Positions 7,617 through 22,276 of a stretch of 64,000 nucleotides of DNA are shown one piece after another (positions within the stretch are counted from its first letter, which is position 1; the number at the start of each line of letters is the position of its first letter). A program made the translations under genes and the position numbers. The notes under the pieces are model-generated. The model had not been told where the DNA came from, did no database searches, and saw only the letters and a program-made list of their open reading frames with translations. The DNA is from an uncultured Chloroflexia bacterium (GTDB lineage Bacteria > Chloroflexota > Limnocylindria > Limnocylindrales > CSP1-4): NCBI GenBank assembly GCA_963707215.1, contig CAVPPB010000003.1, positions 384,001 through 448,000 on the forward strand, written 5' to 3'.

Positions 7617-7910
7617 ATGGGCTATGCGAGGGTCGCCACCTGGACCGTCGGGTTCTGGCTCCTGTGCTACGCGATCGGCGCCCTGGCCTTCGGGCTTCTG
7701 ACCGTCGGGATCCTCGTGGTCGGCGTCGTGCTCGTGCAGATCCCGGTTGCGGCGGGCATGGTCGCCTACCTCGTGGGCCTGATCCTGGCGGGCCGGCGAT
7801 GCCACCTCCGCGGCGCGACCCAGTGGGCCTGCGCGGCCGTTGTCTCGATCGTCCCCGTCCTCGTCGTGGCGGCCGTATCGGTCCTGGCACTGGCAGCGCT
7901 CGGCGTCTGA
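7617..7910 (+). CDS. Small hypothetical membrane protein (about 3 TM)
   Basis: Strongly hydrophobic ORF MGYARVATWTVGFWLL... Confidence 0.55.
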   Translation: MGYARVATWTVGFWLLCYAIGALAFGLLTVGILVVGVVLVQIPVAAGMVAYLVGLILAGRRCHLRGATQWACAAVVSIVPVLVVAAVSVLALAALGV

Positions 7911-8150
7911 ACCCCGGCCTGCCCGTTCGCCTGGCCCGCTCGGGTACCGCCCAGCCTCCACGGGGTCCCACCGTACCGACCCCCGGCCGCCGACCCGGCG
8001 GGGCCTGACTCGATGGCGTCGACGACGAGCAAGGCCGCCGCAGCAGGAGCGATCACCAGCCCGACGAATAGCATGAGCACGCTCACCACTGGAAGCTGAC
8101 GCCGCGAGGTGGCTGGGCCGTGCCGACAGGGCCCACCGCGCCCCCTGCTG

Positions 8151-8543
8151 TCAGGCGTCCCCGATCACGGCGATGGCCTGGATCTCGACGAGCATCTCGG
8201 GCCGCGCGAACCCTGTGACGGTGATCAGGGCGCTGGCCGGGAACCCGTCGGGGAAGTAGCCCTTGCGGATCTGGGTGAACTCCTCGCCGTGCCGCGGATC
8301 GAGGATGAAGACGGTCATCGTGACGATGTCGGCCAGTCGACCGCCACAGCGGTCGAGCGTGCCCGCGATCTCCCGGAACGTGGCGTGGACCTGCCCCGCG
8401 AAGTCGCCCCGCAGGACGCGCCCCGTGTCATCCCGCCAGGCACCGACACCAGCCAACCAGACGAGACGACCGCCGGTCGTGACGACCGCCGGCGAGAAGG
8501 CGCGCTCCGCCTCCCAGGTCCCGGTGATGTGCTGCCTTGGCAT
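8151..8543 (-). CDS. RidA/YjgF family protein
   Basis: FSPAV...VWLAG...DIVTMTVFI...FPASALITVTGFARPEMLVEIQAIA. Confidence 0.88.
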   Translation of the reverse strand: MPRQHITGTWEAERAFSPAVVTTGGRLVWLAGVGAWRDDTGRVLRGDFAGQVHATFREIAGTLDRCGGRLADIVTMTVFILDPRHGEEFTQIRKGYFPDGFPASALITVTGFARPEMLVEIQAIAVIGDA

Positions 8544-8765
8544 CGATCCCTCCAGTCCTGCGACGCCGGCCATCCTCGGGGCAGTCTACGGCTGGCGGAC
8601 GATCCGTTCCCGGGATCGCGGGAGAGGCCGCCGTCGTGGTCGCTGCCCTCCTCCTCGCATCCTCCACCGTGCCTCCATGGCCGTTCCATGCAGGGCAGGC
8701 CCAATAGGGATGCGACCCGCGTCACTCCGTGTGGCGTCAGAACGGAGCGAAAGGAACCACGTCCC

Positions 8766-9563
8766 ATGCCGCTGATGACACGATCCCGATCCACCGACCG
8801 CCTCGGTCGACGCCCGGCGGCCCTGCTGGTCGCCGGCCTCGGCGTCGCCCTGGTCGCTGGTGCCTGCGCGCCCGGGGACGTCTCCGACGCAGCCGCGCGG
8901 GGTCCGCTCGATGGCCGTAGCGGCGAGGCCGCAGGGGGCCGCGGGCACGGAGGCGGCACCGGCGTCGGGTCGACCGGTCTCGGGGAACGAGGGGGCGGCC
9001 AGGACGACGATCAGGGGACGAGCCTCGCTCCGCTCCCGATCGCCACCCTGACGGACCAGGAGGTCGAGTCGCTCCTCACCATGCGCGAGGAGGAGAAGCT
9101 CGCCCACGACGTCTACGTGGCCCTCGGCGAGACGTGGGGCAGCCGGATCTTCGAGAACATCGCCCGGGCCGAGGCGAACCACGTCGCGGCGGTCAAGGCC
9201 CTTCTCGATCGCTACGACATCGCCGATCCGGCGGACGACCTGGCCATCGGGGAGTTCACTGATCCCGAGGTCCGGGCGCTGTACGACGAGCTTGTCACCC
9301 GAGGGCGCACGTCCATCACCGAGGCCTTCGCGGTCGGCGCGCAGATCGAGGACCTCGACATCAGCGACCTGCGGGAGCGGGCGACCGACACGCAGGACAT
9401 CGACAAGGTCTTCGATGCCCTCGAGCAGGGGTCCGAGAACCACCTGCGCGCGTTCGTACGGAACCTGGACCGCCTCGGCGTGACGTACACGCCGACCTAT
9501 CTCTCCGCCGAGGAGTACGAGTCGATCATCGGCTCGTCACACGGGCAGGGTAGGCCGGCCTGA
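8766..9563 (+). CDS. DUF2202 family ferritin-like lipoprotein
   Basis: Lipobox-like LVAGAC; MREEEKLAHDVY...IFENIARAEANH...GAQIEDLDISDL...GSENHLRAF. Confidence 0.85.
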   Translation: MPLMTRSRSTDRLGRRPAALLVAGLGVALVAGACAPGDVSDAAARGPLDGRSGEAAGGRGHGGGTGVGSTGLGERGGGQDDDQGTSLAPLPIATLTDQEVESLLTMREEEKLAHDVYVALGETWGSRIFENIARAEANHVAAVKALLDRYDIADPADDLAIGEFTDPEVRALYDELVTRGRTSITEAFAVGAQIEDLDISDLRERATDTQDIDKVFDALEQGSENHLRAFVRNLDRLGVTYTPTYLSAEEYESIIGSSHGQGRPA

Positions 9564-9593
9564 GCGCGGCAACCGACCTCACGGAGGCTTCCC

Positions 9594-10235
9594 ATGACCA
9601 CGGTCACCCTCACGGCAACGCCCATCGCGAGACCCACCCGGGCGCGACTGGTCTTCTATGTCCGCGCGATCGTCGCGATCGCGATGGTCGCGACCTGGGT
9701 GCTGTCCGCGCTCAGCGGGCTGGCGCTGTGGCTGGCCATGGATGGCCCCGGAGCCCTCGAGACTCCGGCAGCTCTCGGGCTGACGAAGCACGCCTGGGAC
9801 GACATCCACGTCGTGGGGTCCTTCCTTGCCATCGGCCTGACGCTCGTGCATGTGTCCTTGATGCGACGAGGCATCGTCGCCTACGCCCGGCTCATCGTGA
9901 CCGGGCGGCGGAGCCTCTCGACCCGGGTCGTCCGGCGGCCCAAGGCGGTCGTGTACGTCCGCGCCGTCGCCGTCGCCGTCTTGGTCGTCCTGGTGCCCCT
10001 GGCCTTCGTCAGCGGCGTCGTCCCGTGGCTGGCACCCGAGGTCCGCCGCGCGGGCCAGCAGGTCCTCCTGCTCGGCCTGACGAAGCACGGATGGGTGGAC
10101 GTCCACACAGCCGCCACGATCGGCGCGATCCTCGTGTCGATGACCCACGTCGTCGTCGTCCGGGCCGGGCTCGTGGCTGATGTGCGCCTCCTCTTGACGG
10201 GCCAGAGGAGCGGCCCTCGGGCTGTCCGTCGCTGA
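9594..10235 (+). CDS. Tandem DUF4405-like (cytochrome b-type) membrane protein
   Basis: Internal duplication: LGLTKHAWDDIH...LVH and LGLTKHGWVDVH...MTH, with paired His residues. Confidence 0.75.
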   Translation: MTTVTLTATPIARPTRARLVFYVRAIVAIAMVATWVLSALSGLALWLAMDGPGALETPAALGLTKHAWDDIHVVGSFLAIGLTLVHVSLMRRGIVAYARLIVTGRRSLSTRVVRRPKAVVYVRAVAVAVLVVLVPLAFVSGVVPWLAPEVRRAGQQVLLLGLTKHGWVDVHTAATIGAILVSMTHVVVVRAGLVADVRLLLTGQRSGPRAVRR

Positions 10236-10260
10236 CGGCGGCGAAGGTGCCACCCTGACC

Positions 10261-10286
10261 GGCCCCCGTCGCCCGGCCGTGGGCTG
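10261..10286 (+). repeat. Repeat R1, 26-bp core GGCCCCCGTCGCCCGGCCGTGGGCTG
   Basis: Exact match to the copies at 10514, 13000 and 14364. Confidence 0.95.
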
Positions 10287-10347
10287 TTCGCCTTGTTGCG
10301 GGACGTCCCGCACCGACGGGGCTCCGACCGCGGGCTAGGATCGGGGC

Positions 10348-10491
10348 ATGAGCGCCATCCGTGTCATCAGCATCGCCATGACCTTGGTGCTCCTCGGCCT
10401 GACGGCCCTGGTCGTCATCGGAGCGCTGATACCGACCACACTCGGCGGGCCGATCCTCGACGTCCTTCCGAGCCCGACGGTGGCGCCCTAG
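10348..10491 (+). CDS. 47-aa single-TM small protein between R1 and R2
   Basis: MSAIRVISIAMTLVLLGLTALVVIGALIPTTLGGPILDVLPSPTVAP; TAGGAT -10 box 6 nt upstream; below the ORF-track size cutoff. Confidence 0.55.
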   Translation: MSAIRVISIAMTLVLLGLTALVVIGALIPTTLGGPILDVLPSPTVAP

Positions 10492-10511
10492 ATGCGTCGA
10501 GGTAGGGGGAA

Positions 10512-10597
10512 CCGGCCCCCGTCGCCCGGCCGTGGGCTGGTCGCTCTCCCCGTGGGTCAGCGAGATCGCCCCCGGCCGGCCCGGAGCGGGGGGCCGG
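10512..10597 (+). repeat. Repeat R2, full-length hairpin form (core 10514-10539)
   Basis: Terminal inverted repeat CCGGCCCCC...GGGGGCCGG; inner GGGCTGGTCG pairs with CGGCCGGCCC (two G-T pairs). Confidence 0.92.
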
Positions 10598-10641
10598 CGC
10601 GTCAGGCTCGATGGGGCTGCTGAGCGGTCGCCGACCCTCCC

Positions 10642-12162
10642 TCAGTCACAGACCGTGGTCGGGGCCTTCTCGCTGACGACGCCGGTCCCGCCGAGCATGG
10701 CGATCTGGACCGGGCCGAGGCGCTCGAGCTCGGTCGCCACGACCGGAGGCAGACAGCTCTGGCGGGTCAGCAGGAGCGGCCCCTCGACCAGGCTCACGAG
10801 GGGCACCCCGGCCAGGGCGTCGGGGAAGTTCACCCCGGTCGCGAGGTAGACCGTGTCGGCGCCACCGGGGAAGGCCTGCGCGCCGATGGCGGCACTCGTC
10901 GCGTAGCGGTCGGCACCGGACCAGCGGCTCACCGGGATCCCCGGGAACAGCGCCTTGAGGTCATCAACGACCCCCGAGCCGAGGACGCCGGTCCCGCCGA
11001 GGAGGACGAAGCTCGTCGGCGTCAGCCCCTCGTAGGGTCCGATCCCGACCAGAGGGGCGACGAGCACGTCGGGCACACCGCTCCAGGTGGCGAGGATCAC
11101 CGGCGCGCCGACGGCCGCCGCGGCCGCCCCGCCGGCGAGGGCATCGGGGAAGTTCGCCCCAGTGGCGACGAAGATCGGCCCGGTGTAGCCGGCGAAGCGG
11201 GCGTCGAGGATCGCGGCCGCGGTCGCGTAGCGGTCGGCCCCGGCGAGCCGGGTCACCGAGCCGGTGGTGAAGGCCTTGAGCTCATCGCGGACCGCGTTCG
11301 AGACGACCCCGGTCCCGCCGAGGATGCGAATCTGGCCGGGCTCGAGCCATTCGAGCGCCTCGGCCACGACGTCGGGCAGCCGGTCGGGCCGGGTCAGCAG
11401 GACCGGCCCACCGTCCTTGGCCGCCGCCGGACCGCCGGTCAACGCGTCGGGGAAGTTGTAGCCGGTGGCGATGTAGGCGACGGGCACGCCTGGCGAGAAG
11501 CCATAGGCCGTCTCGGCGGCCGTGGCGAAGCGGTCGGGACCGGCAAACCGGGTCAGCGACTGCTGGACCCATGTCGTGAAGGCGAGGTCATGGCCGTCAC
11601 TTCGGCTCCAGTGCTCGTCGTAGGAATGGGTGAGGTACATGTGGCCGCCGAAGTAGACGTTCATGTACCGCCTGTTGTAGGCGAAGCCCCAGTGACCTGC
11701 CCCTTGGGGCGTGGGCTGGACGACGAGCGCAAGCACATCGCCGGCATCGACCTGCAGCGGGTGTGGGATGGTGAATGTGATCCACTCTGCGGTGTCGACC
11801 ACGTCACTGTCGATCGGACCCACCGGGATGGCCGCCGGAGGGACGGGCTCGCTCGTCGCGAGGAGCGCGCCTTCCGGTGTGTCATCTCGGATCTCGATGA
11901 CGAGATCCTGTGTCGTGTCGGCCATCCGGTTCACCAGCAGGTCGACGTAGGTCAGGGAGCCGGCCACCCCGACCGTGAATGTCTGGGCGATCCCGTCGAA
12001 GCACATTCCGTCGTCCCGGGTAACGCAGTACATGCCGTCCGCGACATCCTGCACTTGGTCGGAGTCTGACCACTGGGCGGAGGCCGGCGTCGCAGGGGCG
12101 ACCATGACCAGGACCAACCCGGTCGCAAGACCGATCAGTCCGGCACGCATTGGCATCTTCAC
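10642..12162 (-). CDS. Secreted cell wall-binding repeat (CWB2) protein
   Basis: Signal peptide; three repeats R.AG.DR[FY]AT[AS] with ATG.NFPDAL and LGGTGV. Confidence 0.88.
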   Translation of the reverse strand: MKMPMRAGLIGLATGLVLVMVAPATPASAQWSDSDQVQDVADGMYCVTRDDGMCFDGIAQTFTVGVAGSLTYVDLLVNRMADTTQDLVIEIRDDTPEGALLATSEPVPPAAIPVGPIDSDVVDTAEWITFTIPHPLQVDAGDVLALVVQPTPQGAGHWGFAYNRRYMNVYFGGHMYLTHSYDEHWSRSDGHDLAFTTWVQQSLTRFAGPDRFATAAETAYGFSPGVPVAYIATGYNFPDALTGGPAAAKDGGPVLLTRPDRLPDVVAEALEWLEPGQIRILGGTGVVSNAVRDELKAFTTGSVTRLAGADRYATAAAILDARFAGYTGPIFVATGANFPDALAGGAAAAAVGAPVILATWSGVPDVLVAPLVGIGPYEGLTPTSFVLLGGTGVLGSGVVDDLKALFPGIPVSRWSGADRYATSAAIGAQAFPGGADTVYLATGVNFPDALAGVPLVSLVEGPLLLTRQSCLPPVVATELERLGPVQIAMLGGTGVVSEKAPTTVCD

Positions 12163-12296
12163 GGTGCACTCCCTGGGACGCCTGGATCACGGGTCGGTCT
12201 CGCCAGTGGCACGGCTCGAGCCGGCCACGGCATGGGTCACTGCACCCAGCGCCACCCGTGTGGCACCTGATCGACGCCCAACAGGCAGATGTGTTG

Positions 12297-12322
12297 CGCC
12301 CCCGTCGCCCGGCCGTGGGCTG
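12297..12322 (+). repeat. Repeat R3 (25/26 core match), extending into CCCCCCAGGGTCAG
   Basis: Direct alignment with R2 and R6. Confidence 0.92.
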
Positions 12323-12340
12323 GCCGGCGTCCCCCCAGGG

Positions 12341-12571
12341 TCAGTAGCGAGCCGCTGCAAACAGGGCGACCAGAGCGACCGGGATCATCAGGAGCGCGAA
12401 GACGAGCCCGCCATTGATACAGGCGACCGACCCCGATCCACACCCCGAGGCGGTGATCACTCAGGCGACCAGGGCCGCGATCATGGCACCGACGACCGCG
12501 ACGAGGGAGAAGATCGCCACCCGCGCTCCCCGGTAGCCCATGCGGTAGTAGCGCCCACCCGCCCGGAACAT
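12341..12571 (-). pseudogene. Small membrane protein with an internal in-frame TGA at 12461-12463
   Basis: MFRAGGRYYRMGYRGARVAIFSLVAVVGAMIAALVA*VITASGCGSGSVACINGGLVFALLMIPVALVALFAAARY* reads in one frame across the stop. Confidence 0.55.
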
Positions 12572-12593
12572 TGCTGACCACCGCCTGTGGGCG

Positions 12594-12672
12594 GGCCCCC
12601 ATCGCCCGGGCGTGGGCTGGTCGCCTCGACGCGGCCCAGCGAGATCGCGGCGGCCGGCCCGGAGCGGGGGCC
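12594..12672 (+). repeat. Repeat R4, full-length hairpin form (24/26 core)
   Basis: GGCCCCC...GGGGGCC ends; 12-bp inner stem GGGCTGGTCGCC/GGCGGCCGGCCC. Confidence 0.92.
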
Positions 12673-12704
12673 GTGGCGCCAACGTAGGTGGCGCGGCTCA
12701 CCGG

Positions 12705-12737
12705 AGACTCACCAGCCATGCGACGCCGCGATCCCGA
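12705..12737 (+). repeat. 33-bp segment also found at 14970-15002 (31/33 identical), encoding DSPAMRxRDPE
   Basis: AGACTCACCAGCCATGCGACGCCGCGATCCCGA versus AGACTCACCGGCCATGCGATGCCGCGATCCCGA. Confidence 0.9.
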
Positions 12738-12752
12738 GCGCTCCTCGCCGCC

Positions 12753-12944
12753 CTACTTCCGATCCGCCTCCTGCCTGAGCACGGTGGCCAGAGACGAGCC
12801 GGCCATCATGGTGATTCCAACGATGCCGATCATGGCGGCGGGACCGGAGTCGATGACGCCCAGGAACAGCAACGCTGCCGCGGCGAGCACTATCAGCAGC
12901 CCACCGAGCGCAATCAGCACGCCCAGGAGCCTGGCCCTGTCCAT
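12753..12944 (-). CDS. 63-aa two-TM small membrane protein between R4 and R5
   Basis: MDRARLLGVLIALGGLLIVLAAAALLFLGVIDSGPAAMIGIVGITMMAG... Confidence 0.65.
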   Translation of the reverse strand: MDRARLLGVLIALGGLLIVLAAAALLFLGVIDSGPAAMIGIVGITMMAGSSLATVLRQEADRK

Positions 12945-12999
12945 GGCGGTCAGGCTGCCGGTCGAGGAACGTAACGGGCAAGAGGCCGAGGGCCTGAAC

Positions 13000-13025
13000 G
13001 GCCCCCGTCGCCCGGCCGTGGGCTG
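13000..13025 (+). repeat. Repeat R5 (26/26 core)
   Basis: Exact core, preceded by GAAC. Confidence 0.95.
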
Positions 13026-13061
13026 GTCGGCATCAGTCCGCAGGACTCTTGCGAGGCCACG

Positions 13062-14267
13062 TTGCGGCGAGAACAGTTGGCTGTCGTGGTGCACGTCCTG
13101 GCGAGTGTGCTCAAGGTCGCACTTGGGGCTGCCCTGGTCGCGGGTGGTCTCGTCGGGGTCGTCTACATCAACGCCGAGATCGAGCGGTCGGCTTCGCTTG
13201 AGCCGTCGGCGCCTCCCGAGCCGAACCAGTCGGCCATCGACTACAACTGCAGTCTCCCCGGCATGGGCTACCCGTGGCTTCGGCAGGACCTGTCCTACAC
13301 GGTGCAGTTCACGACTTCTGCGGTCTTCGTGTCCACCGTGCCGGACGTCTCGCCGTGGGCCGCCTTCCTGCCGATATCCATTGCCGGGGACGGGACCGCG
13401 CTTTCGATGGATGACGTGTACCGGAGACTGTGTCGCGTCCACCCTCAGCTCGGTGGAGGCGGCCTGACCCGGGTCTCCACCGAGGTAGCGAAGCAGTTGG
13501 TGTGCGGGGGCCAGGACCGGTGCCTGCAGCGGGAGTGCGATGACTTCCCGGACCTCTACACCGACAGGCTCCCGCTGACAGTCGATGAGGCGCGCATGTG
13601 CCTGGAGCCAATCAGGATGTACTGGTTGCCGCCCATTCCCCAGGACCTCCGTGACGCCTTGGCAACAGCGGTGGCATCCGGAAGGACGCCGGGCCCCTCC
13701 TCGGCGCCGACACCGGCGCCGAGCGGCGAGACTCGCCGCTACCGCATCACGGTCAACGGCTACGAGAACGTGTTCTACTGGAACATCGGTGAGCGCCTAG
13801 GCGTGCGCTTCGACTACCGCCTGATCGGGGAGTTCGCGCTGGTGCGCCCGACCCCAACAAGGCCCTGGACCGTCACGAGCAGACGTGTCATCACGGCTGA
13901 CCTCAAGTACACGAGCCTGTACCCGGCGGACCGCTACGAGGTCACTCTGGACTGTGTGCGCCGGAGCCGCTCGTGTGAGGGGCATCTCATCCGGAGCACC
14001 ACCCTGCGGCTGCGGGTGCAGGTGGACGGCGACGAGATCATCGCGCGCTGGGGTGCCTTCAGGCCCGAGGTTCTGGTGACTGGGAGACGGACAGACCCTC
14101 TCGAGACGGTCCGTTCCTCCTACATCTCCGAGTACTTCGATGACGCCGTCGCGGCGGAGCGCCTGCCCCTGCGGGACCAGTACGTCGGCCCGCAGCGGGT
14201 CAAGACGTACCAGGGTCGCAGCGACATCTCAACCAGCTACGCATACCGCCTCGACCGACTCCCGTGA
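13062..14267 (+). CDS. Hypothetical membrane-anchored or exported Cys-containing protein between R5 and R6; start uncertain
   Basis: About 400-aa ORF with an N-terminal TM segment, a Pro/Ser linker and two apparent domains; no family recognised. Confidence 0.7.
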   Translation: MRREQLAVVVHVLASVLKVALGAALVAGGLVGVVYINAEIERSASLEPSAPPEPNQSAIDYNCSLPGMGYPWLRQDLSYTVQFTTSAVFVSTVPDVSPWAAFLPISIAGDGTALSMDDVYRRLCRVHPQLGGGGLTRVSTEVAKQLVCGGQDRCLQRECDDFPDLYTDRLPLTVDEARMCLEPIRMYWLPPIPQDLRDALATAVASGRTPGPSSAPTPAPSGETRRYRITVNGYENVFYWNIGERLGVRFDYRLIGEFALVRPTPTRPWTVTSRRVITADLKYTSLYPADRYEVTLDCVRRSRSCEGHLIRSTTLRLRVQVDGDEIIARWGAFRPEVLVTGRRTDPLETVRSSYISEYFDDAVAAERLPLRDQYVGPQRVKTYQGRSDISTSYAYRLDRLP

Positions 14268-14363
14268 TCGAGAGTCACGGAGCATCGCATCCATACCTCC
14301 GGTCCACGCGCCGTGCTCCTGGGACTTTCCGTCGAGCTCCTCGACCTCTGTCACGAGTCGAAC

Positions 14364-14437
14364 GGCCCCCGTCGCCCGGCCGTGGGCTGGTGGCCTTCCC
14401 CCCTGGGTCAGCGAGGTCGCGCCGGCCGGCCCGGAGC
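14364..14437 (+). repeat. Repeat R6 (26/26 core; near full length but lacks the final GGGGGCC)
   Basis: Continues ...GGGTCAGCGAGGTCGCGCCGGCCGGCCCGGAGC, like R2 and R4. Confidence 0.93.
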
Positions 14438-14561
14438 TTGTGCGCGGACTGCCGTCGAGCAGCTTCTGGGCCGCGACCGACGTGCTCCGCGAGATCACCC
14501 TCGATCGCGCGGACTAGACTACGCGACGCGACGCGTCCGTTACGTGAACGTTGGTGACCTC

Positions 14562-14954
14562 ATGACAACCAGACGCCTGCCAGCGCAGCTGGCCTTCGCC
14601 TCGCTTCTGTCGCTGGCCGTCACAGACATCCTCTTTGTGTTCCTGGTGGCGGTGGACGTTCTATCCGGGGACGAAGCCCTGTCGGTGGCAACACCCAAGA
14701 TGATCTACTTCTCCCTGATGGCCAGCCTCTCCTTCTTCTCGCTTCCTCTCATTTGGTGGGGGAACAGGATTGGCTACTACGTCGCGATGGCTGTTGCGGC
14801 TCTCTCGTTGCTCGCCGGCGTTTCCGGGGTGTGGTCGGCCCTCACAGGCGCGGTGCCCGTCGATGTGAACGTGCTTTCGGGGCTTGTCGGCCTGGCCCTG
14901 TCGACGATCCTGCTTGTCTCCTCCGGGTACGCCTCCAGAGAGAAAGCGGGATAG
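14562..14954 (+). CDS. Hypothetical 4-TM membrane protein after R6
   Basis: 130-aa hydrophobic ORF MTTRRLPAQLAFASLLSLAV... Confidence 0.7.
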   Translation: MTTRRLPAQLAFASLLSLAVTDILFVFLVAVDVLSGDEALSVATPKMIYFSLMASLSFFSLPLIWWGNRIGYYVAMAVAALSLLAGVSGVWSALTGAVPVDVNVLSGLVGLALSTILLVSSGYASREKAG

Positions 14955-14970
14955 ACAGTCGCCGGCCGCA

Positions 14971-15180
14971 GACTCACCGGCCATGCGATGCCGCGATCCC
15001 GAACGCCTCCACCTCGCCGGCTGAGCCGCCCACCTCGCCCGGCTGCTCGATGCCGGATACGCCCCAGGAGCCGCCGAGGAGGCGATGGTGACCTGGGAGT
15101 GCGAGCCGGACGCCGAGGGCCGCCAGCGCGGCACCTCGGCGTTCTGGGACGGGCTGGAGGCGCGGGCGGTGGAGCGGCGG
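14971..15180 (+). pseudogene. Small helical-protein gene remnant with an in-frame TGA at 15022-15024
   Basis: DSPAMRCRDPERLHLAG*AAHLARLLDAGYAPGAAEEAMVTWECEPDAEGRQRGTSAFWDGLEARAVERR; its 5' part is duplicated after R4. Confidence 0.55.
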
Positions 15181-15181
15181 G

Positions 15182-15560
15182 CTACTCGCTCGGACTCGAT
15201 CCAACCATGAAGGGCGCCCAGATCCCCGAGAAGCCGTCGTCGCCCTCGAGGTGGACCTCGAATGTCACGGTCTCGGCGAAGAGCTCAGCCTCTGTGTAGT
15301 CGATGCCAAGGTATCGGAGATAGATGGTCGACTCGTACTCGCGATCCCGAGAGCCGCTGCAGGGCATGTTGAAGTTCTGGAGCCTGGTTCTCGGGTGCGT
15401 ATCGGTCGTCAGGTGGATCGACCAGAACAGGTCGGGCTGGATCAGGCACCACGGCCCCTTGAACCTACATGTGATGTAGATCCCGTCGCAGTTCTGGTGG
15501 GCCTCCGAGAAGGGCCTCTGGATGCGAACCGAGCCGACCGAGTCGCCGGCGAAGATGGCG
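15182..15560 (-). pseudogene. C-terminal fragment of an unknown gene abutting the Prim-Pol fragment
   Basis: Protein-like IFAGDSVGSVRIQRPFSEAHQNCDGIYITC...PSE with no convincing start. Confidence 0.4.
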
Positions 15561-15700
15561 GCCACCGCTCGATCGTGTCGAGGTTCGTGGTCGCGTCCTT
15601 GAAGCCGTCCGGGGCGAGCCGTGGGACCGGGTGCTTGCCCGGCGAGGGACAGTCGTCCTTGGCCCACATGCAGCCGACGTCGCTGCCCCGGTAGCGGTGG
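15561..15700 (-). pseudogene. Fragment of a bifunctional DNA primase/polymerase (Prim-Pol) N-terminus
   Basis: GC.....CPSPGKHP......GFKDATTNLDTIERW matches the Prim-Pol N-terminal signature and then breaks off. Confidence 0.7.
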
Positions 15701-15750
15701 CGGCACCCGACGCGCCTGACTACTTCCGGTTCGCCGTCACGGGCCAGCTC

Positions 15751-16014
15751 ATGCGGGCGGTCCTGAAGGAGCTGCCGACGTGGCCGTACGAGACGCTGAT
15801 CGTCTTCCGGCCGTGGCTCGACAACGGGGCGGCATATCTACAAGCCGTCGGCGACGGGGTCGTCATGCCTGAGCGATGGTTCGATTGGTTCCCCGGCTGC
15901 TACGTCGACCGGGAGTCGCTAGAGGCGGCCCAGGGACTGACCCACGCCACAGCCACCGTGACGGCGCACGACGCGACCGTCCGCACCACAAGTCCGAAGG
16001 GGGTGACCCGGTGA
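15751..16014 (+). CDS. Hypothetical protein whose stop overlaps the integrase start
   Basis: ORF MRAVLKELPTWPYETL...; GTGA overlap with the integrase; start uncertain. Confidence 0.45.
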   Translation: MRAVLKELPTWPYETLIVFRPWLDNGAAYLQAVGDGVVMPERWFDWFPGCYVDRESLEAAQGLTHATATVTAHDATVRTTSPKGVTR

Positions 16015-17097
16015 GACGCTACGGTGAGGGAACCATCCTCCAGCGATCGAACGGTCGCTGGCAGGCCCGCTGGCTCGTGGACGGCCGGCGGTACTCGGTC
16101 ATGGGCGCGACGAAGCGGGAGGCCCGTGAACGGCTCAGGGCGGCCCTGGCAGACCGGGACAGCGGTGGGCGATCCGTGGACACGCGCAGGACGGTCGGGG
16201 CGGTCCTTGACGAGTGGCTGGCGGTGCGAGTCCGGCAGCGACTGCGCCCGCAGACGGTCGCCAGCTATGAGCGACTGGTCCGCCTCTACATGAAGCCGGC
16301 GATCGGCTCGGTGCCGGTCGCGAAGCTCACGGCAGCCGACATCTCCAAGATGCTCGAGCGGATGTCGGTCAGCGGCACGACGAAGCGGTACACCCTCGTG
16401 GTCCTCCGGGTGGCGCTCGCCTGGGCCGTCCAGCATGACATGGCGCGGCGCAACGTCGCGGCGCTCGTCGAGCTCCCGGAGCGGTCGACGACCGAACGGG
16501 CCCCTACTCGACCGAACAGGTCGTCCGGCTACTCGACGCCACGGCGGACGAGCCCGTCGGGCCCGTGCTGGCGCTCGTCGCCTCGACCGGGTTGCGCCAA
16601 GGCGAGGCGCTCGGGCCGGCGTGGAGCGACGTCGACCTGGAGGCCGGCGCGATCACCATCCGGCAGTCACTGGATCCGCACACGCGGACGCTGGCGCCGA
16701 CGAAGACCGAGAAGTCGCAGCGGACGCTCAACCTGCCCGGGCTTGGGCGGCGCTCCGGGAGCAGCGTCGACGGCAGCTCGAGGCCCGGCTTGCGGCCGGG
16801 CGGAAGTGGCAGGACTCGGGGCTCGTCTTCACGACGAGCGTGGGATCCCCGATGGACGCCGCGGCGGTCGTCCGCGCCGACCACGCGGCCTGTGCTCGTC
16901 TCGGCCTCGAGCGGAGGCGCTTCCACCACTTGCGGCACTTCGCGGCGACGGCGGCGCTCGAGGCCGGCACCGACCTGTATGCCGTGTCGAGGATGCTCGG
17001 CCACGCCTCGATCACGACGACGGCGAACGCCTACGGCCACGTCACCCCGGCGATGCGGCGCCGGACGGCCGAGCTCATGGACGCCGCTCGCGGGTGA
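16011..17097 (+). CDS. Phage-type tyrosine integrase with two frameshifts (about 16505 and 16740)
   Basis: N-terminus RRYGEGTILQRSNGRWQAR; catalytic TGLRQGE, PTKTEKS, HHLRH, LGH and AYGH spread over three frames. Confidence 0.92.
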
Positions 17098-17121
17098 GGA
17101 TTGGGCCCGGATTGGGCCCAA
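17098..17121 (+). repeat. Tandem GGATTGGGCCC x2, also palindromic (TTGGGCCC...GGGCCCAA); candidate integrase arm-type binding sites
   Basis: Lies directly after the integrase stop and before the tRNA; function is inferred. Confidence 0.6.
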
Positions 17122-17133
17122 CGGCACAAGCAG

Positions 17134-17165
17134 AACGGCCCTCGGAGACGCCTCCGGGGGCCGTT
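17134..17165. terminator. Hairpin between the convergent integrase and tRNA genes
   Basis: AACGGCCCTCGGAG-ACGC-CTCCGGGGGCCGTT. Confidence 0.7.
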
Positions 17166-17181
17166 TCGTGCGTGGAAGTGG

Positions 17182-17256
17182 TGGTGAGCCCGGAAGGATT
17201 CGAACCTTCAACCTAGTGATTAAGAGTCACTTGCTCTGCCGTTGAGCTACGGGCCC
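17182..17256 (-). tRNA. tRNA-Lys (anticodon CTT)
   Basis: Reverse complement GGGCCCGTAGCTCAACGGCAGAGCAAGTGACTCTTAATCACTAGGTTGAAGGTTCGAATCCTTCCGGGCTCACCA: cloverleaf, GTTCGAAT T-loop, encoded CCA. Confidence 0.97.
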
Positions 17257-17372
17257 GCCGGGGCCACCGCCGGCCGACGTCGCGGAACATCGGCTCCGGG
17301 GGGCGGCCGCAGGATACCGCAAGTCACCCCTCGACCGCGAGTGGACGACCCCGGCCGGTCGCCCGCCGCTGG

Positions 17373-18455
17373 TCACCCAGGTCCACCGGGCCGGGACCGC
17401 TCGAAGACCGCCCCGAGGATGGCCAACCGCCGCTCCAGGCTCCGTCGCTCGTTGGTGCCGTGCTGCATCAGGTGCGAGAACTCGACGAGCGCAGCGTCCT
17501 GGGATTCCTCGGGCTTGTCGAGCTCGGCCTTGCGGATCCGCTGGAACTCCTCGAGGAAGGTCCGCAGCGCGTCCGGATCGATGACAGCACCCGACCGGTC
17601 CAGCTCCCGGACGAACAAGTAGTACAGCGGCACGTACGACTGGGCTCCCAGGAGGTGGTCGGCGTGGCCGAAGATCGCCTCCAGGCGACCAAGCCGGGCG
17701 TCGACGCGACCGGCGAGCTCCGTCCTCTCGGGCTTCGTCATCCGGCGATTCGCGCGCACGAACTCGTCGAGGGCCTTGCCCTTGAGGTCCGGGATCTGGC
17801 CGTCGGCGCCGCGAGCGTCCGCCGCCTCGATGAGCAGCATCCGGGCGGCCAGGTCGAGGTGCTGGTAGCGCGCGTTGGAGAAGCGCAGACGGTCGGCGAA
17901 GAACGGTCGATGGGCAAGCTCCCGGATCAGCTGGGCCATGTCCCCGCCCATCGCGTTGCGCTTCTCGGCGGCGTTCAGCGGCTCCCCGTTGTTGAGCCGC
18001 GAGAAGAGGTCCTCGATGTCGTCCTCGGTCGCGTTCTGGATGAGGACGACGGAGATGTAGGTCAGTCGCAGGACCTGCTGCCAGGCGGGGTGGAACTCCG
18101 AGAAGCGCATCCCGGCGAGCGGCGGCGGTGTCGTGGGCGGGAGGTCCGGAAGGTTCGCTTCGACGATCCGGAAGTCGGGAGCGAGTGGGAACTCGTCTCC
18201 CAGGAAGCGCCAGATCGTGGTCAGTCGCTGCTTCCCATCGACGATCGTGTAGACCTTGGTCGGGTGCTTCCCGCGCAGGTCATGGAGGTAGATCTTCGGG
18301 ACGTCATAGCCGTTCAGCAGCGAGTCGACGAAGAGCTGCTGCTTGTCGAGCGACCACAGCGAACTCTCCCGCTGGTAGGGCGGGTTCTCCTCGATGGCGC
18401 TCCGCCAGGCCAGCGCCTTGGCGACGGTGAAGTGGTGGGCGAGAACGCAGCGCAT
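17373..18455 (-). CDS. DUF262 (ParB/GmrS-like NTPase) domain protein
   Basis: PPYQRE...W...Q.FVDSLLNGYDVPKIY...IVDGKQRLTTI...LFSRLNNGEPLN. Confidence 0.9.
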   Translation of the reverse strand: MRCVLAHHFTVAKALAWRSAIEENPPYQRESSLWSLDKQQLFVDSLLNGYDVPKIYLHDLRGKHPTKVYTIVDGKQRLTTIWRFLGDEFPLAPDFRIVEANLPDLPPTTPPPLAGMRFSEFHPAWQQVLRLTYISVVLIQNATEDDIEDLFSRLNNGEPLNAAEKRNAMGGDMAQLIRELAHRPFFADRLRFSNARYQHLDLAARMLLIEAADARGADGQIPDLKGKALDEFVRANRRMTKPERTELAGRVDARLGRLEAIFGHADHLLGAQSYVPLYYLFVRELDRSGAVIDPDALRTFLEEFQRIRKAELDKPEESQDAALVEFSHLMQHGTNERRSLERRLAILGAVFERSRPGGPG

Positions 18456-18551
18456 CGGCTCCGCGATTGCGGGATCTGACGGTCGAACCCCGGACCGGGG
18501 GGGTCGGCGGCGGTCGTCCGAAGGTGCCGGTCTCGGGACGACCGCCGCCGC

Positions 18552-19640
18552 TCAGGGTCGTGCGATCGCAGTCTCGCGGTGCTCCACCTTCTCGTAGCCG
18601 CCCCACAGGGGCTCGTAGAAGTACCGGATCCCGTACTCGATCCGGAGCGTCCGGGTCCGCTTGTCCGACGGGTTGAAGTGCTCGTGCCGGGTCATCCTCG
18701 GCGGCACGTGGACCGCGTCGCCGGCCTCCCAGTCGTAGTGCTCGTAGTCCACCTCGGAGAACCCGACGCCCTCGAGGACGTAGAGCACGGCTTCGGTGTG
18801 GGAATGGCAGTGGCTGGAGGTGTGGGGGACCTCCTCGAAGATGTTCGTCATCGCGACCGACACCGCCTGGAACCCGTTGCGCTCGTCGCTGGGGCTCTCG
18901 CCGCCACCCATGAGGATGAGGATCGCGCCGTGTCGATGCGGGTTCTCGTTCCGATGGCGCTTGCCCTTGCCATCCCCGTGCCCGTGCCCGTGCCCGTGGG
19001 ACTCGACCGTCTCGCCGGCGGCGGCTGCCGCCTTCTTCAGCTCGTCTCGCCGCTTCTGCTCGTCGGGCGCGTCCTCGATGTGGAGGGCGATCCGGCGCCC
19101 CAGCGCGTCGAACTGGCCATCCTCGGCTGGCAGCTTCGTCTCGAACCCCGACTGGTTCGGCCCCTTGTCCTCGAGCTGCTCGAGGCGACCAAGGCGGACG
19201 AAGAGGTCGAGATCCATCGCCGTCGCCGTGACGTACTCGACATCGGCGTCGCCGGTGTTGAAGAGCTGGTGGGTCGACATGTAGGGGATGTGGATCGTCG
19301 TCCCGGTGTGGAAGTCGTAGCGCCGGTCGTCGACGACGAGGATCCCCTCGCCCGAGACGATGTGGATCGCTTCCTCGCCGTGACGGTGCTTTCCGGTGTG
19401 GTGCCCCGACGGGATGATCGCCTTGCAGAGGTTGGAGCCCTGGGTCGGGAAGCCGACCTGCGGGCCGATCAACATCGCGAGCTTGTAGTCCTGGGGCGTC
19501 TCGATCCAGGCCGCATCGCGCCCGCGGGCGAGGATGGGGGCCCGCCCCGTCTCGTACTCGTTGGCCTCGCTCTTCGCCAGCCACTGCGAGTAGAAGTCCG
19601 CAGGCTCGTACCGGGTCACGGCGCGCCACTGCTCGGTCAT
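18552..19640 (-). CDS. Bicupin domain protein
   Basis: Two cupin motifs (KHRHGEEAIHIVSGEG and CHSHTEAVLYVLEGVG...HEHFN) joined by an HGHGHGHG linker. Confidence 0.85.
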   Translation of the reverse strand: MTEQWRAVTRYEPADFYSQWLAKSEANEYETGRAPILARGRDAAWIETPQDYKLAMLIGPQVGFPTQGSNLCKAIIPSGHHTGKHRHGEEAIHIVSGEGILVVDDRRYDFHTGTTIHIPYMSTHQLFNTGDADVEYVTATAMDLDLFVRLGRLEQLEDKGPNQSGFETKLPAEDGQFDALGRRIALHIEDAPDEQKRRDELKKAAAAAGETVESHGHGHGHGDGKGKRHRNENPHRHGAILILMGGGESPSDERNGFQAVSVAMTNIFEEVPHTSSHCHSHTEAVLYVLEGVGFSEVDYEHYDWEAGDAVHVPPRMTRHEHFNPSDKRTRTLRIEYGIRYFYEPLWGGYEKVEHRETAIARP

Positions 19641-19787
19641 CGATCCCTCCGAGGTCTCGCGGGCCGGTCCCGACCGCCGACGCCGCAGAACGATGTGTAC
19701 ACCGCAGTATGGCGTCGTGGACACCCAGGTCGCAAGACCGCACGGCCGCGGCCAACGACTGGTCCGGGCAGACCCGGGGACGCGGTG

Positions 19788-20660
19788 CTAGGGAGCGACG
19801 CGCAGGAGCAGGCGAGCGACAGCGTTCGGCTCTTCACCGCGGTCGATCGCCTCGACCTCCAGCCAGGCCCGGCCGAACGGGAGGTCGGGGGGGATCGACA
19901 GCTCAGCGCTGATCGACCGCCAACCGTCCTCGGCGGGCCGGGTCGACACGATCCGCTCCTCCCCCACCCGCCCGTCCTCGGACGCAAGGCGGACGAGCGC
20001 GCGGGTCGCCCCGCCGCGCACCAGGGCGCTCACCTCGACGGTCTCCCCCTCGCGCCACCCCTCGAGCCGATCCGGTGATCGGAAGACGATGGGGCCGCGC
20101 GTCCGGATGACGTAGGGGACGGTCGCGAGGACCGCACCGGCCGGCTCACGGAGCTCGAGCACGACCCGTCCGCCCCCGACCGGGGGCAGGAACGGCAGAT
20201 CGGCCCGGAACCGGCCGTCCGACGCAGGGACGGCCGTCGCGGTCCCGAGCACCATCCACGGATCCTCGTCGCGAAGCTCGGCGACGACCTTGCCCGAGGG
20301 ATCGGTCACGCGCCCGAAGACCTGCAGCGTAGCCAGGACCTGCGAGGCCTCGTACGATCCGATGGCCGGCGGCAGGTCGATGCCCAGCAGGGCGACCACG
20401 CTGACCGGCGGCTCCTCGATGGCAGGCACGACGAACGGGACCGACGAGGCCGGCGCCGCGGAGGGCGACGGCGCAGCGGATGTCTCGGGCGGGCTGGTGA
20501 GACGTCCGCCGATGCCGGCAAGAGCGACACCGACCCCGAGCACGAGGACGATGGCAGGCAGCACGGCCGAGCCCTTGAGTCGGGTCGGTGGGACCAGCGC
20601 TTCGCGGCTGCCAGGTTCGGCCCATCGGCCCGGATCCCCGCCCGGATCGGCATCGATCAT
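19788..20660 (-). CDS. Hypothetical membrane-anchored protein, possibly with Ig-like domains
   Basis: N-terminal TM segment, Pro/Ser linker, beta-rich C-terminus. Confidence 0.6.
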   Translation of the reverse strand: MIDADPGGDPGRWAEPGSREALVPPTRLKGSAVLPAIVLVLGVGVALAGIGGRLTSPPETSAAPSPSAAPASSVPFVVPAIEEPPVSVVALLGIDLPPAIGSYEASQVLATLQVFGRVTDPSGKVVAELRDEDPWMVLGTATAVPASDGRFRADLPFLPPVGGGRVVLELREPAGAVLATVPYVIRTRGPIVFRSPDRLEGWREGETVEVSALVRGGATRALVRLASEDGRVGEERIVSTRPAEDGWRSISAELSIPPDLPFGRAWLEVEAIDRGEEPNAVARLLLRVAP

Positions 20661-20746
20661 CGTCCGATCCTACCCCGCGGTCGTTCCGGGCGCCGGCGGG
20701 GCCGCGACCGGGCGACCATGGAGCCGGGCGCCGCAGCCCCCGACGC

Positions 20747-22276
20747 CTACCCGGGCTGGTTGTCGATCTGGGCCTTCTGGAGCGACCCGCTGAAGTCCAC
20801 GTAGACCGCCTTCCACTCGGTGTACGTGTCCAGCGCCGCATGGCCGGCCTCGCGGTGACCGTTGCCGGTCTCCTTCCAGCCACCGAAGGGGAGGTGCGTC
20901 TCGGCCCCCGTCGTCCCGGCGTTCACGTAGACGATGCCGGTCTCGAAGTCGCGCATCGCCCGGAAGGCCGTGTTGACGTCGCGGGTGTAGATGGAGCTCG
21001 AGAGACCGTAGCGGACCTGGTTCAGCGCCGTCACGGCAGCCGGGTAGTCGGCCACCGGGATGATGGACAGCACCGGCCCGAAGATCTCCTCCTGGGCGAT
21101 CCGGTCCATCGGCCGGACGCCGCTGAAGATCGTCGGCTCGAAGAAGTGGCCGTGCTCCAGGCCCGGCCCGGTCGCCGGCGATCCGCCTCGGACCAGCTCG
21201 CCCTCGCGCCGGCCGACCTCCACGTAGCCGGTGACCTTCTCCACCGCCGCGGCGTTGACCAGCGGGCCGACGTCGGTCCCCTCCTCCAGGCCGTCGCCCA
21301 GCCGGAGCCCTCGGGCGCCGCTCTCGAGGCGCTCCAGCAGCGGCTCCAGCACGGCCTCCTCGACGATGACCCGGCTGCAGGCCGTGCAGCGCTGACCGGT
21401 CGTCCCGAAGGCCGACCACAGGATCCCCTCGGTCGCCAGGTCGAGGTCGGCGTCACGGAGGACCACGATGCCGTTCTTGCCGCCGAGCTCCAGGCTCAGC
21501 CGCTTGAGGCGCCGGCCGGCCCGCTCGGCGATCCGCTTGCCGGTCGCGCTGGCCCCGGTGAACGAGATGACCGGCACGTCGGGACTGTCGACGAGCGCCT
21601 CGCCGACCTCGGCGCCGCCGCCGGTCACGAGGTTGACGGTCCCGGCCGGGAAGCCCGCCTCGGCCATGAGCTCGACGAGGAGCGTCGCGCAGTGCGGCGC
21701 GTCCGACGCCGGCTTGAGGACGACGGTGTTGCCGGTGACCAGGGCCGGCATCATCTTCCAGCAGGGGATGGCCATCGGGAAGTTCCAGGGGGTCACGATC
21801 CCGGCCACGCCGATCGGCTGGCGGACGCTCATGGCCCACTTGTCGGGCAGCTCCGAGGGCACCGTGTCGCCGAACATCCGGCGCCCCTCGCCGGCCATGA
21901 GGAAGGCGATGTCGATGCCTTCCTGGACGTCCCCCAGGGCCTCGGCGAGGACCTTGCCCATCTCGCGGGTCATCGCCCGGGCCAGGCGCTCCTTGTGCTC
22001 GGCCATGAGCGCGCCGAAGCGGTAGAGGATCTCGCCCCGCTTGGGAGCCGGGGTGGCCCGCCACGCCGGCAGGGCCTGCTCCGCGGCCCGGACCGCCATC
22101 GCCGCGTCGGCGGCGGTGCCGGCCTGGAACCGTCCGACCAGGTCCCGGGTGTCGGCGGGGTTGCGGCTCTCGAAGGTCCGCCCCGACGAGGCGTCGACCC
22201 ACTCGCCGGCGATGAACAGTCGGAAGGTCGGGGCGCCGGCACCCGCATCGGGGCCGGAGGCGGCGGTCTCGGTCAT
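20747..22276 (-). CDS. Aldehyde dehydrogenase family protein
   Basis: PWNFP, SFTGASATG, LELGGKN, GQRCTA, EEIFGPV. Confidence 0.95.
   Translation of the reverse strand: MTETAASGPDAGAGAPTFRLFIAGEWVDASSGRTFESRNPADTRDLVGRFQAGTAADAAMAVRAAEQALPAWRATPAPKRGEILYRFGALMAEHKERLARAMTREMGKVLAEALGDVQEGIDIAFLMAGEGRRMFGDTVPSELPDKWAMSVRQPIGVAGIVTPWNFPMAIPCWKMMPALVTGNTVVLKPASDAPHCATLLVELMAEAGFPAGTVNLVTGGGAEVGEALVDSPDVPVISFTGASATGKRIAERAGRRLKRLSLELGGKNGIVVLRDADLDLATEGILWSAFGTTGQRCTACSRVIVEEAVLEPLLERLESGARGLRLGDGLEEGTDVGPLVNAAAVEKVTGYVEVGRREGELVRGGSPATGPGLEHGHFFEPTIFSGVRPMDRIAQEEIFGPVLSIIPVADYPAAVTALNQVRYGLSSSIYTRDVNTAFRAMRDFETGIVYVNAGTTGAETHLPFGGWKETGNGHREAGHAALDTYTEWKAVYVDFSGSLQKAQIDNQPG

Follow-up and report, generated by a model that had tools for sequence, protein, structure and literature searches.

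Gene-sized modules bounded by short repeats are known from integrons, with their folded attC sites and the integrase IntI, and from the dif modules of Acinetobacter, which are bounded by plasmid Xer sites. Short intergenic repeats of another kind, the dRS3/NIME and Correia repeats of Neisseria, are species-specific, lie near surface-protein genes, and are thought to promote recombination and to serve as integration targets. Here we analyze a 64-kb stretch of DNA (hereafter, the window; G000:C3:384001-448000) from a Candidatus Limnocylindrales metagenome-assembled genome (MAG; G000: five contigs, 3.26 Mb, 72% GC, 84.8% complete), in which six co-oriented copies of a short repeat separate genes for membrane and secreted proteins. 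An earlier reading of the window, made without database searches (the sequence-only reading), had proposed that these genes were acquired one at a time, each with a copy of a recombination site, next to a tyrosine integrase. We call the repeat element A, and two other recurrent modules of the same islands B and C. The array is real and non-random, and it is matched by no catalogued element. We tentatively favor the reading of A as a recombination anchor of double-stranded DNA by which modules are joined in decaying, tRNA-linked islands; among the readings considered, it best accounts for orientation, position, flank assortment, and island context.

Among described systems, integron cassette arrays and clusters of attC sites lacking an integrase (CALIN) offer one comparison, and the excerpts of Cury et al. 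2016 (PMC4889954) on which we draw place integrons in Chloroflexi. As far as these excerpts describe them, such arrays resemble those of A in having co-oriented short repeats and mostly single, unrelated, often small or secreted open reading frames (ORFs), in a repeat that stays with one neighbor so that one edge is the exchange point, and in occurring without a nearby integrase. Measured against the same excerpts, the arrays of A differ from integrons in that no IntI was found, A is conserved as a sequence rather than as a folded imperfect palindrome, half of the copies lack a second arm, the ORFs run in mixed directions, and a promoter-like region and a riboswitch of their own are present in some modules; moreover, A stays with its downstream module, whereas the integron repeat stays with the upstream one. 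The dif modules, as outlined in excerpts of Mindlin et al. 2019 (PMC6449649), are gene-sized and bounded by short (~28 bp) pdif sites for XerC/XerD with an 11-6-11 layout and palindromic inner arms; they are flanked by inversely oriented sites and reside on plasmids. Judged by that outline, A is similar in being a duplex site that bounds gene-sized modules, in the lack of a dedicated recombinase within the element, and in the recurrence of the same module in different contexts; dif modules use the host Xer proteins, and the XerC/D-like genes of G000 are its only intact tyrosine recombinases. Unlike the outlined pdif sites, A has no significant dyad symmetry, all its copies are direct repeats within each array, and they lie in chromosomal islands rather than on plasmids; a Xer/dif-type site was rejected on the first two grounds. 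A literature search found no work on integrons in Limnocylindria and, judged by titles, none on such repeats in Limnocylindrales.

In the window, the 26-bp core of A matches the forward strand perfectly at positions 10261, 10514, 13000, and 14364, with one mismatch at 12297 and two at 12594, leaving intervals of 253, 1783, 297, 406, and 1364 bp. Neither strand has a further match with up to three mismatches, and 100 dinucleotide-preserving shuffles yielded no match at all to the 26-mer. The sequence-only reading was thus correct on the number, orientation, positions, identities, and spacing of the copies, and on their absence from the rest of the window. Each of the six intergenic gaps between 10236 and 14561 contains one A, irrespective of whether the gene pair is tandem, convergent, or divergent. 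Among eight array and flanking proteins, none of the 28 BLASTP pairs reached E<0.3, so the cargo is unrelated, as had been described, and tandem duplication of a single gene was rejected. The description of the cargo as membrane or secreted genes in mixed direction holds as well.

When the copies are aligned with their flanks, the 26-bp core proves to be the left portion of a longer, non-coding element of ~80 nt. Its invariant block 1 is GTCGCCCGGCCGTGGGCTGGTCGCC, with GGCCCCC just before it; in full copies, block 1 is followed by a C-rich spacer of variable length and then by block 2 (approximately CGAGATCGCGCC-GGCCGGCCCGGAGC-GGGGGCC), which is present in about half of the copies. In all, A holds three conserved blocks, and the spacer between them varies in both length and sequence. 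Similarity among the window copies reaches ~75-80 nt, into block 2, at 10514, 12594, and 14364, and ends after ~31-34 nt at 10261 and 13000 and after ~47 nt at 12297; the alignment bears out the sharp left edge and variable right extent that had been noted by eye. Immediately left of A, a weak GAAC recurs across flank families (G in 17, A in 14, A in 13, and C in 18 of 32 copies, in a genome of 72% GC). Block 1, read from the sequence, holds the direct repeat GTCGCC-N13-GTCGCC, the first half of which is repeated in block 2, and the termini of full copies are inverted over 8 bp perfectly and over roughly 20 nt imperfectly.

What is conserved in A is the sequence and not a fold. Neither strand yielded a consensus fold (energies of -8.9 and -7.8 kcal/mol vs about -54 for single sequences), and fold z-scores of the window copies ranged from -2.2 to +1.3 with one of six below -2 (the copy at 10514, z -2.2). 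For only 3 of 32 copies, none of them among the 19 labeled short, did the left arm have a downstream complement better than in 95% of random genome windows. No Rfam family matched A at its gathering score, and none matched at E up to 5 within 10200-15300. Conservation of this kind points to recognition as duplex DNA, and in our best reading the recognized unit would be a double-stranded site of ~31-36 bp, composed of the weak GAAC, GGCCCCC, and the invariant block 1, with an optional right extension of ~50 nt. By the fold z-scores, the consensus fold, and the arm-complementarity tests, we rejected a role of A as a hairpin, attC site, terminator, or small RNA.

The same tests make it extremely improbable that the array is the remnant of an integron, that is, a CALIN. 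Although co-oriented short repeats between mostly single ORFs would suit such a remnant in a phylum with integrons (Cury et al. 2016, PMC4889954, as excerpted), there is no conserved hairpin on either strand, complementarity to the left arm falls in the best 5% only in the three copies counted above, half of the copies have no right arm, the RYYYAAC and GTTRRRY boxes are absent, and the ORFs run in both directions. The IntI model TIGR02249, searched against the whole assembly, scored at best 83.4 bits (on a XerD-like protein) vs a cut-off of 265. Of the hallmarks of an integron, the co-oriented array with one ORF per repeat was found here, whereas IntI, attC folding, and R-L boxes were not.

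We next turn to the distribution of A. The 24-mer core with up to three mismatches occurs at 17 places in G000 (reversed control: 0), an nhmmer profile of full copies gives 17 matches at E<0.01, and looser matching together with BLAST adds divergent copies, for a total of ~21 copies at seven loci, four of which are arrays (Table 1). The genome-wide scatter that had been named as the mark of a repetitive extragenic palindrome (REP) was not seen; REPs or bacterial interspersed mosaic elements with REP-associated tyrosine transposases were likewise rejected, as PF01797 is absent from the G000 search and no hairpin is conserved. The Neisseria repeats occur as hundreds of scattered copies with inverted termini, whereas A comprises about 20 copies in a few co-oriented arrays. 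G001, the one other genome of the genus available and compared here along with two metagenome contigs, shares genes with G000 at ~82% identity and yields 17 matches at E<1e-4 (hence at least 17 copies), with two copies on each of six contigs. Of 40 other genomes of the family and order, G001 alone contains the core with up to two mismatches; the 96-nt element gave one or two weak partial BLAST matches (26-50 nt) in 7 of 119 other family genomes; and scans for the exact core hit, among species representatives, the contigs of G001 only, plus the two metagenome contigs. With matches beyond the genus so weak and partial, A is confined to the genus among the genomes searched, and it is young or fast-evolving. 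A plasmid, phage, or viral source was rejected, since the 96-nt element has no match in PLSDB or INPHARED and exact block 1 has none in IMG/VR.

A genus-restricted, multi-copy, and always intergenic sequence might also be a non-autonomous element resembling a miniature inverted-repeat transposable element (MITE), of ~80 nt, that inserts into intergenic DNA of islands; its ends would be the imperfect inverted repeats GGCCCCCG...CGGGGGCC, and the short copies would be truncated remnants. The inverted termini of the full copies fit this explanation, as do subfamilies common to several copies (for example, the variant GGTCGCCCGGCGCTCGGCTGG carried by two G001 copies), and multi-copy transposase genes are often lost from MAGs in assembly. 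Nevertheless, we consider it quite unlikely: full copies are not surrounded by target-site duplications, orientation is uniform within each array whereas MITEs insert either way, truncation is one-sided with right-only remnants nearly absent (one 22-nt match in G000 and a few weak ones in G001), the assembly contains no Y1, IS110, rve, or serine enzyme, and the plasmid, phage, and viral collections hold no matches.

The orientation of A follows the array. All copies share one strand in each of the four G000 arrays (6/6, 5/5, 3/3, and 4/4) and in each of the six two-copy contigs of G001 (6/6), a uniformity expected by chance with a probability of 3.8e-6, and the genes inside the arrays point both ways. 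Beyond the window, A occupies five to six of six gaps in the array at C3:181-186k and three of four at C1:257-259k. For about 5 of the 16 copies in the G000 arrays, the genes on both sides end toward A.

Comparing copies across loci revealed that the left edge of A is a breakpoint. The copy at 10514, together with 85 nt to its right (the 3' end of a CWB2 gene), recurs in a tRNA-Arg island of G001 (C126) beside an unrelated left neighbor, and the copy at 12594, together with the start of C, recurs at G000:C3:185770 and G001:C121, where the left flanks are again unrelated. In both recurrent units, homology begins within about 5 nt of the left edge. Flanks also assort freely. Each left-flank family (B-type GGGCCTGAAC, CACGAGYCGAAC, GTGTTGC, and TAGAC) is found with both full and short right sides; the 12-nt left flank CACGAGTCGAAC of the full copy at 14364 also stands beside a short copy in G001 (L003:3337); and the copies at L001:528 and L004:947 have their right flank in common and differ in the left one. 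In pairwise flank extension, which is blurred by indels, most pairs of copies share no more than the core, give or take ~10 nt. The right-hand C unit is accompanied by a variant at position 8 of the core; this variant and the GAAC on the left of the break both place the exchange at the extreme left of A.

We infer that the arrays were built by recombination at A, with the crossover at its extreme left. A module would then consist of A and whatever lies to its right, and a single crossover at A would always leave direct repeats, whether a resident copy recombines with circular or incoming DNA or with a copy in another island. Such a crossover would account for the uniform orientation, the single copy per gap, and the absence of any tie to gene direction. 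The agent may be a site-specific recombinase that the 85%-complete assembly does not contain, or XerC/XerD; it may also be recombination, RecA-dependent or homology-facilitated, over the 25-80 bp that are identical. Modules could equally well be joined by ordinary homologous or homology-facilitated recombination. The proposal that single-gene modules were each acquired with a repeat is supported in part, by the six occupied gaps of the window and the recurrent units of A and right flank, but homology sometimes runs across A (see below).

Exchange between arrays has left a trace beyond A itself. Positions 15120-15559 of the window and G000:C1:103219-103660 are ~99.5% identical over ~440 nt, with an abrupt end inside a gene. 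That gene is a 174-aa ORF without a Pfam match, alike in its C-terminal part at the two loci and different in its N-terminal part. The identity is the product of recent conversion or a mosaic gene, and, on the evidence of these sequences, exchange between the arrays is recent or ongoing. Public runs offer a thin view of the locus: in one search, three DNA runs contained such DNA, in small shares (0.16, 0.07, and 0.06), and no RNA run did. Read contigs from the three runs are pieces of ~150-370 nt at a depth of 2-3, some of them identical to the window and bridging A at 12297, 12594, and 14364. At this depth, four read joints appeared, with 21-24 letters on the shorter side, and none of the four starts or ends in a copy of A; with coverage too thin to be telling, neither excision circles nor joints of one A to another were seen.

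The surroundings of A contain further recurrent parts. Module B (17 distinct copies in G000, G001, and the loci compared) is ~59 nt long, has a small hairpin AGGCC-GAG-GGCCT, ends in GAAC, and lies directly upstream of riboswitch copies and of diverse non-homologous genes; it may represent a propagated promoter region. Module C is a small ORF that full copies of A directly precede in three to four cases, A and C being inherited together, and a 40-nt remnant of C lies at 12701-12741. The riboswitch is c-di-GMP-II-GAG (RF03169), an orphan variant with 17 matches above the 40-bit cut-off in G000. Every match immediately precedes a gene whose product is a secreted or membrane protein, and many are in islands that bear A; six of them lie 30-55 nt left of A on the opposite strand, with B between. 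The element upstream of the window's CWB2 gene is a weaker candidate, as its cmscan score and the 31.8 bits it received in the genome search are both below the 40-bit gathering score. RF03169 was found in 11 of 15 other family genomes, with up to 23 copies, and in none of nine genomes of a small-genome sister family. As RF03169 is widespread in the family and A is specific to the genus, A joined this gene pool later. The placements of B before A, of RF03169 before B and A, and of C after A suggest that A was probably part of an ancestral divergent intergenic region, in the order gene, riboswitch, B on one side and A, C on the other.

Such placements also raise the explanation that A regulates an envelope and secreted-protein regulon in cis, be it as an operator, as an upstream activating site, or as a promoter module. 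It would have spread with promoter modules as a mobile promoter and kept its identity by selection and gene conversion, the arrays being regulon islands. Conserved blocks around a variable spacer fit protein binding rather than neutral decay, and A may indeed have a regulatory role. The direct repeat of block 1, echoed in block 2, would suit such a site, as would the position of A 30-55 nt upstream of an oppositely oriented riboswitch and gene in the six cases above, its joint inheritance with C, and the coherence of the cargo (transmembrane (TM) peptides, lipoproteins, and CWB2 and PKD proteins). We nonetheless find this explanation somewhat unlikely. The copies between converging 3' ends lie where no promoter is needed, orientation tracks the array and not the genes (at C1:257-259k, all three copies point against all the genes), and the flanks are unrelated rather than diverged. 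In addition, an identity of 24-26 nt across species whose genes are ~82% identical exceeds what a binding site needs, and no sigma-70-type promoter was found in 9500-15500. An ECF-type promoter (GAAC-N17-CGT) was rejected as well, as GAAC is present in about half of the copies and a co-oriented downstream gene in 6 of 16.

The array lies within a variable segment of the window, at approximately 7904-20754, that has no DNA match in G001: synteny with G001 breaks off on contig C259 and picks up on C284 around this segment, whose GC content is 0.66-0.70 vs 0.72-0.75 outside. The reverse case was also seen, as the tRNA-Arg(tct) gene of G001 is separated from a partial copy of its 5' part by a 2-kb insert, in which two copies of A lie together with two small genes and a truncated integrase; the same site is empty in G000. 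The integrase at the right end of the window segment is a pseudogene, readable only in three frames because of two frameshifts, in which the catalytic R, HxxR, and Y motifs can still be made out. It had been described as an adjoining tRNA-targeting tyrosine integrase other than IntI: tRNA-Lys does adjoin it, and its TIGR02249 score of 31.8 bits vs a cut-off of 265 sets it apart from IntI, but it is a frameshifted pseudogene. No repeat of tRNA-Lys of at least 13 nt was found within 25 kb on either side (best, 12 nt). The segment thus has the adjoining tRNA gene and integrase, the variability, and the composition of a tRNA-linked island, and lacks the tRNA repeat at the far end. It departs from classical tRNA islands in that A is an internal, regularly placed, co-oriented repeat between cargo genes.

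Three of the four G000 arrays adjoin tRNA genes, with the terminal A 88 nt from tRNA-Leu(caa) in one case and 134 nt from tRNA-Asn in another, and a further G001 copy lies 93 nt from tRNA-Leu(taa). Other islands of G000 are bounded by tRNA-derived direct repeats (a perfect 54 nt from tRNA-Gly and 36 nt from tRNA-Pro). Where the ends of islands are visible, they consist of tRNA repeats rather than A, which makes it most likely that whole islands were moved by the integrases. In the genome-wide core search that had been suggested as a check, the ~21 copies do cluster at seven loci and the arrays are mostly tRNA-linked, but an integrase remnant is missing in three of the four.

As a side observation, the island with the 54-nt repeat of the tRNA 3' part (4.7 kb at tRNA-Gly(ccc), G000:C1:717584-722434) carries peptidase, beta-lactamase-like, and DinB-like genes together with B, C, and riboswitch modules, and is without a recognizable integrase or a copy of A. 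In the window, a perfect tandem GGATTGGGCCC GGATTGGGCCC lies at 17098-17119 (+), between the integrase stop and the 3' end of tRNA-Lys; the pair may represent arm-type sites of the integrase and has no further copies in the window.

The link to tRNA genes suggests yet another origin for A, as arm-type or att leftovers of successive tRNA-targeting integrations whose elements have mostly been deleted since. Beyond the three arrays, two G001 loci adjoin tRNA genes, terminal copies lie at an arm-site-like distance (88-138 nt) from the tRNA 3' end, integrase remnants occur in two arrays, and the islands with tRNA-derived repeats are in the same genome. We regard this origin as very unlikely, because internal copies come without tRNA fragments though A itself is undecayed, seven different tRNA species are the sites of the islands and no likeness was detectable between the two integrase remnants, the candidate arm sites beside the window integrase (GGATTGGGCCC twice) are different from A, and the right end of A faces the tRNA in four of five cases and the left end in one. 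Derivation of A from a tRNA 3' end was rejected, as A is unlike tRNA-Lys and the array contains no tRNA fragments.

We also considered that A is the site of an integron-analogous cassette system, mechanistically different from integrons and new in Chloroflexota. In such a system, the site would be a duplex of 31-36 bp rather than a folded attC, with strand exchange at its left edge, between GAAC and GGCCCCC; a recombinase encoded elsewhere (the host XerC/D or an enzyme missing from the assembly) would excise A with its gene and insert the unit into a resident A, and arrays of envelope-protein genes would accumulate inside tRNA-linked islands. We hold this possibility to be unlikely. A link between the repeat and a capture enzyme, as first proposed, was not found, the window integrase being a pseudogene and the other three arrays having no remnant; overall, the interpretation that opened this analysis is partly supported. 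Among other candidates, a generic short dif-like pattern had no match in the genome, and a k-mer spacing scan of the genome gave no CRISPR-like arrays. The GAAC beside the left edge of A prompted the idea of an IS91-like rolling-circle element, by likeness to the IS91 target; GAAC also ends module B where no A follows.

Several observations weigh against A as a recombination anchor. The first concern the enzyme. Searches of the G000 assembly for IntI, Y1, IS110, rve, and serine recombinases gave no match; for the Y1 transposase (PF01797), the control was positive in 6 of 14 genomes, and a Y2 transposase search was without a match in G000, with its control equally silent. The only intact tyrosine recombinases of G000 resemble XerC and XerD, and the dyad symmetry of the core is not significant (best arms 8/11 with a 9-nt spacer, equaled by 17.6% of 2000 shuffles), a weak dyad unlike most tyrosine-recombinase cores. 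Other points concern the junctions. Similarity on the right of A ends raggedly, at about 31, 34, 47, 60, and 75 nt, which has the look of decay rather than of precise exchange. Homology crosses A between C3:182263-182901 and C1:104427-103793, and again between C1:257359-257749 and both C3:154329-153971 and G001:C121, so that in these pairs A is internal to a conserved unit and not a module boundary. A or a decayed A follows B in about 10 of 17 copies, suggesting an ancestral B-A composite rather than repeated capture, and some intervals between copies of A contain two to three genes. Finally, the array at C3:181-186k lies 24 kb from any tRNA, no integrase remnant was found in the three G000 arrays outside the window, and the comparison covers only two genomes of the genus and two metagenome contigs.

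The positions of the elements discussed above, and of the cargo genes, are listed in Table 1. Cargo in the other arrays includes lipoproteins, a PKD-domain protein, and more TM proteins, and array genes have a GC content at third codon positions of 0.80-0.90 vs 0.90-0.97 in neighbors at these other arrays. One gene of the C3:181-186k array, G000:C3:184324-185691 (+), is an exception to the envelope theme, as it encodes a 455-aa cytoplasmic-looking protein with no Pfam match. The small two-TM ORF of the window, with its single in-frame TGA, may be a pseudogene or a case of readthrough; tRNA-SeC is present in G000, and nothing else indicates selenocysteine at this ORF.

Table 1 Features of the window and further loci of A and RF03169 in G000 (window coordinates unless a contig is given).
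Feature	Position	Strand	Details
A, short form (block 1 only)	10257..10295	+	Exact 26-mer; nhmmer E 1.5e-4; 26 nt past the stop of a DUF4405 gene, ~60 nt ahead of the 47-aa ORF
A, full form (block 1, C-rich spacer, block 2)	10510..10596	+	26-mer; nhmmer E 1e-16; between two convergent gene ends
A, partial form (to about position 47)	12295..12344	+	26-mer; nhmmer E 8e-5; right end overlaps the stop codon of the - strand small ORF; 31 nt from the riboswitch-like element
A, full form, then start of module C	12593..12674	+	26-mer; nhmmer E 3e-13
A, short form, module B before it	12995..13035	+	26-mer; nhmmer
A, full form	14358..14444	+	26-mer; nhmmer E 1e-16
Module B, conserved sequence upstream of leftward genes; ends with GGCCTGAAC beside A	12941..12999	-	17 copies
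Module C, frameshifted small ORF (~75 aa, no Pfam match)	14966..15210	+	At other loci, preceded by A
Weak c-di-GMP-II-GAG riboswitch-like element upstream of CWB2 gene	12183..12265	-	cmscan 25.9 bits, E 0.088
47-aa single-TM peptide	10348..10491	+	Cargo
506-aa secreted protein, three CWB2 cell-wall-binding repeats	10642..12162	-	Pfam PF04122, E 7.9e-52
Small two-TM ORF broken by in-frame TGA	12341..12574	-	Cargo
63-aa TM peptide	12753..12944	-	Cargo
401-aa protein, N-terminal TM anchor, no Pfam family	13062..14267	+	Cargo
130-aa multi-TM protein, no Pfam family	14562..14954	+	Cargo
Variable segment (island, ~13 kb) with array	7904..20754 (approximate limits)		No DNA match in G001
Tyrosine integrase pseudogene	16013..17098	+	PF00589, 54.7 + 20.5 bits in two frames
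tRNA-Lys(ctt), bordering the island on its right	17182..17256	-	ARAGORN; Rfam 72.8 bits
GmrSD-type (DUF262 N-terminal domain) restriction-like gene	17373-18455	-	Just past tRNA-Lys, within the variable segment
A locus, array	Window		6 copies
A locus, array	C3:181057-185770		5 copies
A locus, array	C1:257420-259199		3 copies
A locus, array	C1:101180-108185		2 canonical + 2 divergent copies
A loci, single copy	C3:154760; C3:339816; C3:1266147		
RF03169 examples	C1:104339-104428; C1:108240-108328; C3:339870-339959; C3:1265462-1265550		

If the cassette reading were true, A would add a third repeat-bounded module architecture to the integrons and dif modules, and cassette-style shuffling of envelope genes would have had more than one origin; a short DNA site open to testing would also become available in an uncultured, high-GC lineage of Chloroflexota. 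Even under the less novel readings, the locus defines a variable gene pool of the genus that is wired to the orphan c-di-GMP-II-GAG variant, and it supplies many natural test cases of RF03169 (17 here and up to 23 in a relative) for finding its ligand.

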